Below, piece after piece: positions 14,255 to 15,991 of a stretch of 20,207 nucleotides of DNA. Location: positions 1 through 20,207 of IMG/VR virus record IMGVR_UViG_2718217714_000002; one strand, written 5' to 3'. The position numbers and the translations under genes were made by a program. Numbering within the stretch: position 1 is the first letter of the stretch; every line of letters starts with the position of its first letter. The notes under the pieces were generated by a model. The model was given only the letters and a program-made list of their open reading frames with translations. It did not search any database and was not told where the DNA came from. The DNA is from a virus (taxonomy: Duplodnaviria; Heunggongvirae; Uroviricota; Caudoviricetes).

Positions 14255-14473
14255 ATGTTAACCAGAAGGGAAAAAGACATGCTAAAACAGCAAGATATGA
14301 CAGAAACGGCGAAAGTTGTTTTTAATGAATTAAGCATCGAACCGGCAACAGTCGGGGAGATTGCACAAAACACATACCTTTCACGCGAACGCTGTCAGTT
14401 AATACTGACCCAGTTGGTTATGGCGGGGCTGGCAGATTACCAGTTCGGCTGTTACAGACGTCTTCAGCAATGA
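14255..14473 (+). CDS. Small hypothetical protein (72 aa), possible DNA-binding
   Basis: ORF upstream of and co-directional with the methyltransferase. Helix-rich segment ATVGEIAQNTYLSRERCQLILTQL. Start uncertain (alternative Mets at 14279 and 14297). Confidence 0.4.
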   Translation: MLTRREKDMLKQQDMTETAKVVFNELSIEPATVGEIAQNTYLSRERCQLILTQLVMAGLADYQFGCYRRLQQ

Positions 14474-14622
14474 AGGGCTTTTAATTTGTGAAAATGGGCG
14501 GCTGGTGGGTGTTGGTAGCACCTGCCAGCCATTCGCTCATGCTTACTGGTCACAAGCGAACCACGGCCCACTGCTTTAGCGCAAAAGCAGAGTGAGCCTA
14601 CCAGAGTTACGCTTACTGATCC

Positions 14623-15669
14623 ATGAAAAATACTGTAAAAATAAACAGTGTTGATTTAATCAACGCTGATTGCCTGCATTTTATTCAGTCCCTGCCTGAT
14701 GATTCCATTGACCTGATTGTTACCGATCCGCCTTACTTCAAGGTGAAACCCAACGGTTGGGACAATCAGTGGAAAGGGGACGAAGATTACCTTAAGTGGC
14801 TGGACCACTGTTTGGCCCAGTTCTGGCGGGTGTTGAAACCTGCCGGAAGCCTTTACCTGTTCTGTGGGCATCGCCTGGCATCTGATATCGAAATCATGAT
14901 GCGTGAACGCTTTAATGTGCTGAACCACATTATCTGGGCGAAGCCGTCCGGACGCTGGAACGGATGCAACAAGGAAAGCCTGCGGGCGTATTTCCCGGCA
15001 ACAGAGCGCATTCTGTTTGCTGAACATTATCAGGGGCCATACCAGCCCAAAAATGACGGCTATGCGGCAAAGGGGCGCGAGCTTAAACAGTGCGTCATGG
15101 CCCCGCTGATTTCTTACTTTCGTGATGCGCGAGAATCTCTGGGGATAACATCAAAACAGATAGCGGAAGCCACCGGAAAGAAAAACATGGCGTCACACTG
15201 GTTTGGTGCCAGTCAGTGGCAGTTGCCGAACGAGGCTGATTACAAAAAACTTCAGGCGCTGTTCGCGCGTGTTGCAGCAGAAAAACACCAGCGCGGGGAG
15301 CTGGAAAAGCCGCACCACCAGCTGGTCAGCACATACAGTGAACTGAACCGGCAATATGCCAGCCTGCAGGAGGAGTATAAATCCCTGCGGCGTTATTTTT
15401 CCGTATCAGCTGCTGTTCCGTATACGGATGTCTGGACGCACAAGCCTGTGCAGTATTATCCAGGCAAACATCCCTGTGAAAAACCGGCAGATATGTTGCG
15501 TCAGATAATTACTGCCAGCAGTCGCCCCGGTGATTTGGTCGCTGATTTTTTTATGGGGTCTGGCTCAACAATAAAAGCAGCACTTTCACTGGGACGTCGC
15601 GCAATTGGCGTGGAACTGGAAGAAGAGAGATTTAATCAGACTGTAACTGAAATAAAAAATAATCGTTAA
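14623..15669 (+). CDS. DNA methyltransferase, beta-class (N6-adenine or N4-cytosine), orphan
   Basis: DLIVTDPPY (motif IV) near the N-terminus and FFMGSGST (motif I, SAM-binding) near the C-terminus. No restriction endonuclease candidate nearby. Confidence 0.8.
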   Translation: MKNTVKINSVDLINADCLHFIQSLPDDSIDLIVTDPPYFKVKPNGWDNQWKGDEDYLKWLDHCLAQFWRVLKPAGSLYLFCGHRLASDIEIMMRERFNVLNHIIWAKPSGRWNGCNKESLRAYFPATERILFAEHYQGPYQPKNDGYAAKGRELKQCVMAPLISYFRDARESLGITSKQIAEATGKKNMASHWFGASQWQLPNEADYKKLQALFARVAAEKHQRGELEKPHHQLVSTYSELNRQYASLQEEYKSLRRYFSVSAAVPYTDVWTHKPVQYYPGKHPCEKPADMLRQIITASSRPGDLVADFFMGSGSTIKAALSLGRRAIGVELEEERFNQTVTEIKNNR

Positions 15670-15739
15670 ATATGCATTTAATAATTTCTTTATTTCATAA
15701 AAAATAAAAATATATACGTATATTTACAAATCTTGATAT

Positions 15740-15767
15740 GATTTTCCATTGAAAAGAGAGCTGGCAT
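15740..15767 (+). promoter_or_regulatory. Candidate sigma70 promoter for the tRNA pair
   Basis: TTGAAA (15740-15745), 16-nt spacer, TAATAT (15762-15767), about 70 nt upstream of the first tRNA. Pattern match only. Confidence 0.3.
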
Positions 15768-15837
15768 TATTAATATCGGTACCCGGTTCCGAAGGGGATG
15801 TAAGCGCGGTCATTTTTATTTCTCTTGAGGAACCTGT

Positions 15838-15913
15838 GCCGACTTAGCTCAGCAGGCAGAGCAACTGACTTGTAATCAGTAGGTCACCAGTTCGATTCCG
15901 GTAGTCGGCACCA
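15838..15913 (+). tRNA. tRNA-Thr (anticodon UGU)
   Basis: Hand-folded cloverleaf: acceptor GCCGACT/AGTCGGC, D-stem GCTC/GAGC, anticodon stem ACTGA/TCAGT, loop CTTGTAA (U33, anticodon TGT at 15871-15873), TTCGATT T-loop, encoded CCA. One A-C mismatch in the T-stem. Confidence 0.8.
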
Positions 15914-15916
15914 TAT

Positions 15917-15991
15917 GCGGGTATCGTATAATGGCTATTACCTCAGCCTTCCAAGCTGATGATGCGGGTTCGATTCCCGCTACCCGCTCCA
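15917..15991 (+). tRNA. tRNA-Gly (anticodon UCC)
   Basis: Acceptor GCGGGTA/TACCCGC, anticodon stem TCAGC/GCTGA, loop CTTCCAA (anticodon TCC at 15950-15952), T-stem GCGGG/CCCGC with TTCGATT loop, encoded CCA. Three nt after the previous tRNA. Confidence 0.85.

Follow-up and report, generated by a model that had tools for sequence, protein, structure and literature searches.

The closest described relatives of the locus analysed here are non-specific adenine methyltransferases from lambdoid prophages. M.EcoGII of Escherichia coli O104:H4 C227-11 is a non-specific N6-methyladenine (m6A) methyltransferase, which is not expressed in lysogens and is harmful when expressed, and a very similar enzyme was named in phage 1720a-02 (PMC5778455). 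M.EcoGI, likewise harmful when expressed, and a relative of 99% identity present in ST131 are also non-specific and transcriptionally silent in lysogens (PMC4659465). M.EcoGII, the reconstructed ancestors Anc291, Anc289, Anc284 and Anc250 and the ancestor SUPREM all methylated DNA as well as RNA, and no discernible sequence motif on RNA was seen for M.EcoGII, Anc291 and SUPREM (PMC11551740). A review from 2025 places M.EcoGII beside Mom among the protective modification functions which stay silent in the lysogenic state (PMC12707154). M.EcoGII is widely used for chromatin footprinting, MadID and RNA labelling.

Here, we analysed a stretch of 20,207 nt of viral DNA (Caudoviricetes; IMG/VR record IMGVR_UViG_2718217714_000002, positions 1 to 20,207), called the window in the following, which contains a gene of the M.EcoGII family together with a gene for a small protein, a structured leader RNA and two tRNA genes. 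We read these elements as a late-operon module for DNA protection of the M.EcoGII type, which would be controlled by a terminator and the leader and is followed by tRNAs copied from the host, and we assign a probability of about 0.6 to this reading as a whole. The only new item of the window is the conserved folded leader RNA preceding the methylase gene, which has no match in Rfam. The elements of the module are arranged as follows.

14279 to 14473, plus strand: gene for a predicted winged-helix protein of 64 amino acids; PHROG 331 (function unknown), E 6e-35; NCBI name "TrmB family transcriptional regulator".
14494 to 14621, plus strand: conserved structured leader RNA of about 130 nt, within the 150-nt spacer from the small open reading frame (ORF) to the methylase gene.
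14494 to 14540: helix H1 of the leader, a long hairpin.
14548 to 14557 paired with 14611 to 14621: long-range helix P2 of the leader, the latter strand being nucleotides -12 to -2 before the methylase AUG.
14565 to 14598: helix P3 of the leader, a hairpin.
14623 to 15669, plus strand: gene for a beta-class N6-adenine methyltransferase of 348 amino acids, assigned by sequence to the M.EcoGII family; PF01555 N6_N4_Mtase, E 5e-45.
15838 to 15913, plus strand: tRNA-Thr(UGU), found by ARAGORN; 69.8 bits with the Rfam tRNA model (gathering score 29).
15917 to 15991, plus strand: tRNA-Gly(UCC), found by ARAGORN; 65.6 bits with the same model (gathering score 29).

The methylase contains the motif DPPY at residues 35-38 and FMGSG at residues 310-314. 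This order agrees with the beta class given in an earlier reading of the same DNA made without database searches (the sequence-only reading), and the nearest solved structures are those of beta-class enzymes such as M.RsrI, M.MboIIA and CcrM. Over the full length and with two gaps of one residue each, 288 of 347 residues (83%) are identical to M.EcoGII, whose reference sequence was machine-read from a PDF file (PMC11551740, Table S1) with small errors, so that the true identity may be slightly higher. The identity amounts to 89% with Anc291 and to 74% with SUPREM, and conservation within the target-recognition region (residues 160-237) equals that found elsewhere in the protein, with 66 of 78 residues identical to M.EcoGII. 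Because the identity of 83% extends from end to end and includes the target-recognition region, membership in the M.EcoGII family is secure as far as sequence can tell, and the comparison strongly suggests that the window allele is non-specific as well. Where the sequence-only reading had seen an orphan enzyme, we find an ortholog of M.EcoGII with a published non-specific m6A activity and a presumed protective role.

We consider it quite unlikely that the methylase recognises a specific sequence, or that its main task is the epigenetic control of genes in host or phage instead of non-specific protection. Differences from M.EcoGII affect 17% of the residues, including 12 of the 78 in the target-recognition region, and among the orphan methylases of phages many control replication or packaging (PMC12707154). 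However, M.EcoGII and the ancestors Anc291, Anc289, Anc284 and Anc250, which share 65-89% identity with the window protein, all methylate DNA and RNA, three of these proteins were tested for RNA motifs and showed none, and the reported silence in lysogens leaves scant room for a steady-state epigenetic control.

The methylase gene also does not belong to a Type II restriction-modification (RM) system, since no nuclease gene is conserved on either side of it among 120 related loci, which agrees with the lack of a nuclease partner already assumed from the sequence. Directly 3' of the methylase gene, 84 of these loci carry holin genes, whereas others contain tRNA genes for Thr and Gly (9), Gly alone (10), the Ile(CAU)/Arg sets of Shiga toxin (Stx) phages (8) or Arg(UCU) and Gly (1). 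The block of small ORF and methylase gene shows 82-87% nucleotide identity with SfV, phiP27, mEp460, 1720a-02 and many Stx2 phages, and in phiP27 and 1720a-02 it is located directly 5' of the ileZ/arg tRNA genes and stx2. The module consisting of these two genes is carried by 2,603 of 5,426 complete E. coli genomes, with up to 8 copies per genome. It is therefore no strain-specific moron, but represents a conserved late-operon module present in about half of the complete E. coli genomes.

Because the spacer between the small ORF and the methylase gene is of constant length, we attempted to align it over the related loci. Its conservation proved to exceed that of some portions of the adjacent coding sequence, and compensatory changes were obvious in the alignment. 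A covariance model (R1) built from the defined H1/P3/P2 structure matched 55 of 55 close loci and 52 of 69 divergent loci on viral contigs, which had been retrieved with a Plesiomonas-type methylase. There was one match per locus, always on the sense strand of the methylase gene and always abutting its start. In the divergent set, whose related sequences were aligned by fitting them to the model structure, which inflates the pairing counts, 85.7% of the alignment cells were standard-paired compared to 30-39% with the partners slid by one to three columns, and 32 of 41 pairs were changed on both sides compared to 14-16 when slid. The number of doubly changed cells was 224 in this set, compared to 78 +/- 9 in shuffled and 38-51 in slid alignments. 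None of 500 shuffles matched any of the observed covariation measures, and the close set led to the same verdict. Every helix of the leader, including P2, bears compensatory changes, as observed over sequences scoring from 148 down to 25 bits, and the frequent G-U pairs fit the sense strand only, as they would be A-C mismatches on the other strand. This RNA had been missed by the sequence-only reading, which was right in outline and is supported in part, but was too generic and wrong on some of the details.

The spacer might alternatively contain no regulatory RNA, but a site acting at the DNA level, such as an operator or a recombination site, or its conservation might be a by-product of recent common descent. 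Many of the loci are in fact closely related, fitting alignments to a model raises the number of apparent pairs, and according to the energy model the methylase start is not occluded to an unusual degree. Yet the compensatory changes in every helix, the excess of doubly changed cells over shuffled alignments, the matches confined to the sense strand, the G-U pairs and the lack of a conserved reading frame leave only a slim chance for this explanation. The possibility of a translated leader peptide was rejected, because the frames beginning with the conserved AUG or GUG at the H1 base vary in length between 4 and more than 44 codons and share no conserved stop. Searches of Rfam 15 gave no match to the leader at E<=1 in the window (14474-14622) or in eight divergent loci, and the literature searched contained neither a description of the leader nor a test of M.EcoGII homologs in phage biology, a coverage that is incomplete and does not prove novelty.

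The surroundings of the leader differ between phages. In a divergent phage group (L134, 1273-1357, with equivalents in L130-L160), a winged-helix-like ORF is followed by a promoter-like site, a terminator hairpin, the leader and the methylase gene, and the terminator is located directly 5' of the leader, unlike in the window, where it precedes the small ORF. Separately, we noticed a near-threshold Rfam match to isrJ, a small RNA (sRNA) of a Salmonella island, about 60 nt 5' of the leader in the divergent locus L169 (1086-1154; 34.4 bits compared to a gathering score of 37), and a weaker isrJ match in L182.

No canonical Shine-Dalgarno sequence is present within 10 nt of the methylase AUG, and in many relatives the positions from about -17 to -11 before it form an A-rich stretch with AAGG. 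We do not claim a strong thermodynamic sequestration of the methylase start, whose unpaired probability is ordinary; because the energy model is unremarkable, the case for an occlusion of the start region is made only by the covariation of P2. The most invariant blocks of the leader are AUGGGC (14494-14499, the 5' strand at the base of H1) and GGCCCA (14566-14571, the 5' strand of P3), which are complementary to each other (UGGGC with GCCCA). Judging from this complementarity, an alternative pairing that breaks both H1 and P3 is possible, which covariation cannot probe because both blocks are invariant.

We tentatively propose, at somewhat less than even odds, that the leader represents an undescribed class of cis-regulatory RNA which is dedicated to M.EcoGII-family genes and gates the translation of a toxic methyltransferase. 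The regulatory role is a hypothesis, and our leading guess, made by analogy, is a translational gate like that of the com-mom system of phage Mu. Such a gate might possibly be triggered by the winged-helix protein in a Com-like manner, by the enzyme itself in an autoregulatory circuit, or by a small ligand as in a riboswitch. If the leader indeed gates translation, this would explain how a toxic gene can be carried, and it would provide a compact off-switch for engineering.

Another explanation of the tie between leader and methylase would be that RNA is the relevant substrate of the enzyme, which would then place m6A on rRNA, tRNA or mRNA of the host or the phage during lytic growth, and the leader might serve as a preferred substrate or an autoregulatory binding site. 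M.EcoGII modifies RNA and DNA:RNA hybrids in vitro, reaching about 30% of the RNA adenines (PMC5778455, PMC11551740), but it prefers DNA, of which about 90% of the adenines are methylated in vitro (PMC11551740). The structured RNA is tied to the methylase gene even where the small ORF is missing, which would be compatible with an RNA substrate, whereas the place of the gene in the late operon, beside lysis and packaging genes, suits the protection of DNA. To our knowledge, no RNA target of the enzyme is known in vivo, and we regard this explanation as improbable.

The gene preceding the leader needed a correction of its start. An ORF from 14255 to 14473, corresponding to the 72 amino acids proposed in the sequence-only reading, does exist, but phages 1720a-02 and phiP27 do not share its first ATG (14255). 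The ATG at 14279 is conserved in an alignment with four phages, is located behind a Shine-Dalgarno-like AAGGG and coincides with the RefSeq start, yielding a protein of 64 amino acids. We found 318 database relatives across the Enterobacterales, most of which are also 64 amino acids long. Pfam matches are weak and below threshold (DprA_WH and TrmB), and AlphaFold2 predicts a winged helix with the fold order H-H-H-beta-beta at a mean pLDDT of 90.4. Foldseek retrieved generic winged-helix matches only, namely methyltransferase dimerisation domains, IclR and MarR regulators and the SelB domain binding the SECIS RNA hairpin; as none of them had an E value below 1e-3, a specific fold match was rejected. 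The helix RCQLILTQL is invariant in an alignment of 16 sequences and its core CQLILTQL is present in all 34 intact copies, whereas the remainder of the protein varies. On the basis of the predicted fold, the small protein is a plausible nucleic-acid-binding protein, which leaves the earlier suggestion of a regulator standing as a candidate function.

A synteny scan with one genome per species yielded 34 loci ranging from Escherichia to Proteus, Providencia and Plesiomonas, and in 32 of the 33 testable ones a methylase ortholog (60-90% identical) starts 142-153 nt past the stop codon of the small ORF. As the window shows, members of the enzyme family are passed on in a set unit, which comprises the winged-helix gene, the structured leader and the methylase gene. 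A hidden Markov model of the small ORF detects only 5 of the 52 leader-bearing divergent viral loci; many others contain an ORF of 75-97 amino acids with a similar pattern, for which profile comparisons were weak (E 9e-4 at a probability of 22%; E 8e-3), so that homology of these ORFs to the small ORF is suggestive only.

The three elements might alternatively form a toxin-antitoxin-like module, or an abortive-infection or exclusion module, from which the lysogen benefits and not the phage progeny. Members of the enzyme family are toxic when expressed and paired with a small upstream protein, and the module is kept intact in a defective prophage and occurs in up to 8 copies per genome. However, PADLOC reports generic methylase models only for the enzyme and nothing for the small ORF, the module sits behind a late terminator and is reported to be silent in lysogens, and functional phages have kept it in the interval from Q to the lysis genes. 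We therefore judge a function of this kind to be very improbable and prefer the late-operon module for DNA protection, whose genomic setting is defined by the following features.

12170 to 12532, plus strand: gene for an antiterminator Q of the phage-82 type; PF06530 Phage_antitermQ, E 1.3e-43; RefSeq "antiterminator Q family protein".
12739 to 14022, minus strand: gene for a "proteasome-like" protein of 427 amino acids; PHROG 5990, function unknown.
14131 to 14160, plus strand: intrinsic terminator-like hairpin (14131-14152) with T-run; terminator scan, 8-bp stem followed by the T-run.
16350 to 16377, plus strand: terminator-like hairpin with T-run 3' of the tRNA genes, from consensus scans only.
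About 16673 to 17399: holin genes, with RefSeq starts equivalent to 16739 and 17121.

Positions 12000-17500 of the window are 99.9% identical to a prophage in eight complete genomes of enterotoxigenic E. coli (ETEC), e.g., strains 120899, ETEC-2265 and TW10722. RefSeq annotates the order in this ETEC prophage as Q, a hypothetical protein, a small hypothetical protein, a "DNA-methyltransferase", tRNA-Thr, tRNA-Gly, two holins and an endolysin, which confirms the position between Q and the lysis genes noted from the sequence. The order of Q, terminator hairpin, small ORF and methylase gene, and holins is also found in SfV, phiP27, 1720a-02 and mEp460. The hairpin at 14131 aligns with an SfV hairpin annotated as a rho-independent terminator, and we take it to be the late terminator tR'. 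The block just 5' of it (about 14090-14130) is kept in 1720a-02, phiP27 and mEp460 and directly follows the Q stop codon in 1720a-02, while the window and mEp460 have a reverse-strand gene inserted between Q and this block. The late promoter is probably located within the block, with the terminator beside it, and the small ORF and the methylase gene would therefore be the first late genes. We also considered whether the segment from promoter to terminator (about 14090-14160) encodes the sRNA StxS, which derives from a 258-nt PR'-tR' transcript of the Sakai Stx phages and was described in a paper with no mention of a methylase, and rejected this candidate; only the principle carries over.

Both tRNA genes were called with the anticodons tgt and tcc by ARAGORN and score far above the gathering threshold of the covariance model, as anticipated in the sequence-only reading, and the pair indeed differs from the CAU/UCG/UCU set found in the Stx-type phages phiP27 and 1720a-02. 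They are no exotic cargo, but near-copies of the host genes thrU and glyT. The tRNA-Thr is 97.4% identical to chromosomal thrU in 5,420 of 5,426 E. coli genomes, from which it differs by two U-to-C changes in the D-loop, and the tRNA-Gly is 97.3% identical to chromosomal glyT, with a compensatory change in the acceptor stem from C6-G67 to U6-A67. In the host operon thrU-tyrU-glyT-thrT-tufB, thrU and glyT are separated by tyrU, and the flanks of the prophage tRNA genes are unrelated to this operon. The Thr tRNA was found at 6,473 places in the 5,420 genomes, i.e., in about a thousand extra copies. The prophage genes add dosage of the sole decoders of ACA and GGA, and they provide no new decoding capacity. 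The hairpin at 16350-16377 could end a tRNA transcript begun at a promoter-like site at 15749-15776.

The thrU-derived copies have changed in several relatives. In related prophages on viral contigs (L045, L050 and L052; L043, L055-L058, L060 and L064), the copy located 5' of the glyT copy is either decaying, with many substitutions and no longer called by ARAGORN, or replaced by unrelated sequence, which suggests weak or variable selection on the prophage Thr tRNA. In the prophage SerU-LTIIb (L001, KU052038), a gene annotated as tRNA-Arg(UCU) at 1122-1197 has the same thrU-derived scaffold as the tRNA-Thr of the window with three base differences, including G35 to C in the anticodon, and apparently represents an anticodon switch on the thrU scaffold. 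The capture of host thrU and glyT by a prophage and the changed anticodon in one relative are relevant to the question of why phages carry tRNAs.

As proposed earlier for the AT-rich cargo genes, we compared codon usage with the two tRNAs. ACA accounts for 29.7% of the Thr codons in the prophage genes of the window compared to 14.8% in host core genes (p = 8e-4), but the enrichment of GGA is not significant, and codon matching was rejected as the explanation of the tRNAs on the grounds listed below. A codon-supply role finds weak support in these data. The tRNA pair may instead make up for the loss of host tRNAs through cleavage or depletion, be it by defences that target tRNAs or in the course of infection. 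This would fit near-copies of single-copy host genes, which add dosage instead of decoding, and the weak codon matching, and the differences in the D-loop and acceptor stem could alter recognition by a nuclease. However, the anticodon loops are the same as those of the host, so that an anticodon nuclease would cut both equally, several prophages carry decayed copies, and we know of no nuclease that targets tRNA-Thr(UGU) or tRNA-Gly(UCC). Replacement of damaged tRNAs appears unlikely to us on balance.

In the preferred reading, the module would form the first late-operon segment of a lambdoid prophage of ETEC. In an intact relative, RNA polymerase would pass the hairpin at 14131-14152 with the aid of Q, and the late transcript would contain, in this order, the message for the 64-amino-acid winged-helix protein, the leader of about 130 nt, the methyltransferase gene and the two tRNAs. 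The enzyme would place N6-methyl groups on adenines of the replicating phage DNA without sequence preference just before packaging, the methylated progeny DNA would withstand adenine-sensitive restriction enzymes in the next host, and the copies of thrU and glyT would supplement the sole readers of ACA and GGA. Because the enzyme family is toxic when expressed, we propose that terminator and leader silence the methylase in the lysogen and limit or time its translation, to which the winged-helix protein may contribute, by analogy with Mu Com and mom. A presumed anti-restriction role is the accepted reading for M.EcoGII-type enzymes. Gene identities, family membership, synteny, RNA covariation and the descent of the tRNAs from the host follow from the present analysis, and the non-specific activity, toxicity and silence in lysogens are carried over from published relatives. 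If the enzyme hypermethylates virion DNA, this would be relevant to the passage of restriction barriers by Stx, LT-II and other converting phages.

Several points weigh against this proposal. The window allele is known from its sequence alone, with activity and expression deduced from relatives, and we found no demonstration of an anti-restriction role even for M.EcoGII (PMC5778455, PMC12707154). The methylase start region has an unpaired probability of 0.55, which is unremarkable compared to 0.22-0.63 for other genes of the window. A consensus scan detected no late promoter in the expected block, and the hexamers read by eye were unconvincing. Leader and methylase gene occur without the small ORF in some divergent loci (L128, L172, L182 and L184); therefore, the winged-helix protein is no obligatory partner, and the RNA is the more constant partner of the methylase. 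As to the tRNAs, GGA is not significantly enriched in the prophage genes of the window, AUA and AGA exceed both ACA and GGA in enrichment, ACA is not enriched among late genes of the intact relative, and several prophages hold decaying thrU copies or only the glyT copy. Finally, about 26 kb of genes have been lost from the window prophage, in which the module may be a relic.

This loss is evident from the right part of the window. Only the 5' part of the endolysin gene (GH108) is left, starting at 17379, and it is joined to an ORF with tail-fibre repeats (17413-18129), a DUF4376 gene (18136-18702) and chromosomal ydfJ (18924-20207). The right end of the window matches the same ETEC strains about 26 kb further along, and compared to strain 120899, it lacks lysis and morphogenesis genes amounting to about 26 kb; the prophage copy in the window is therefore defective.

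The 427-amino-acid protein had been grouped with the methylase in the sequence-only reading. Because its gene precedes the terminator hairpin and runs antisense to it, it is not co-transcribed with the methylase gene. Pfam, NCBIfam and PADLOC gave no match to the protein, and a sequence search of the PDB yielded only chance-level hits. A homolog with 45% identity is encoded in a Mangrovibacter prophage (L037) at the same spot, on the reverse strand between Q and the small ORF, and mEp460 and phiP27 hold other cargo genes at this position.

Some further observations concern other parts of the window. The segment of about 670 bp between the tRNA genes and the holins (16000-16670) contains no convincing ORF and gave only sub-threshold Rfam matches (e.g., STnc100, 19.9 bits), and terminator-like hairpins converge within it (16350-16369 on the plus and 16421-16397 on the minus strand). 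The segment may represent an sRNA locus or leftover cargo. The early region contains non-phage cargo, namely genes for a BCCT-family transporter (4640-6643) and a DUF2254 protein (6692-7984) and a very AT-rich ORF of 447 codons (8267-9610, 34% GC); in strain 120899, insertion sequence (IS) elements are located near the early cargo, and the layout there is unlike that of the window.

Most of the listed features belong to an ordinary and common module, and it is the leader RNA and its frequent winged-helix companion that are worth following up. Compared to M.EcoGII and M.EcoGI, the window enzyme has nearly the same length (348 vs. 349 amino acids), the same order of DPPY and FxGxG motifs and the same lambdoid prophage setting, and the whole block of small ORF and methylase gene is common to the window and phage 1720a-02. 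It differs from M.EcoGII by 59 substitutions, is nearer to Anc291 (89%) and is followed by the thrU- and glyT-like tRNAs.

The com-mom system of phage Mu offers the closest functional parallel known to us for the proposed control. In this operon, as described by Hattman and Kahmann, the start codon of a toxic gene for late DNA modification becomes accessible when the small protein Com binds to the leader; Com binds RNA by a zinc finger, and Mom is not a methyltransferase. Common to both systems are a late, toxic DNA-modification gene with no expression in the lysogen, 5' of it a gene encoding about 60 amino acids, and an mRNA structure involving the region before the start codon. In contrast to Com, the small protein of the window is a predicted winged helix with no Cys4 motif, which sets it apart from the com-mom family, and some relatives of the window have the leader without the small gene. 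The likeness would therefore be one of mechanism, not of family membership.

The ileZ-argN-argO cassette of Stx phages occupies the same position as the tRNA pair, 3' of the same methylase module and before cargo and lysis genes, and its tRNAs likewise serve codons that are rare in E. coli. Whereas phiP27 and 1720a-02 contain the set of tRNA-Ile(CAU) of the lysidine type and tRNA-Arg with the anticodons UCG and UCU, the window encodes Thr(UGU) and Gly(UCC) with no toxin gene downstream. SerU-LTIIb (KU052038) is more similar, with a 95% identical methylase and the same pair of tRNA scaffolds, and the second of its two pairs is Thr(UGU) and Gly(UCC) as in the window. It differs in the first pair, which has the anticodon UCU (annotated as Arg) on the thrU scaffold, in its duplicated holin and tRNA blocks and in its LT-IIb toxin genes. 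Finally, the arrangement of a gene for a small protein of a DNA-binding type just 5' of a methyltransferase gene recalls the Type II RM systems regulated by C proteins. In contrast to these, the window contains no gene for a restriction enzyme, the winged-helix protein has sub-threshold Pfam matches only, and the spacer between the two genes is a covarying RNA structure of 150 nt instead of a short operator.

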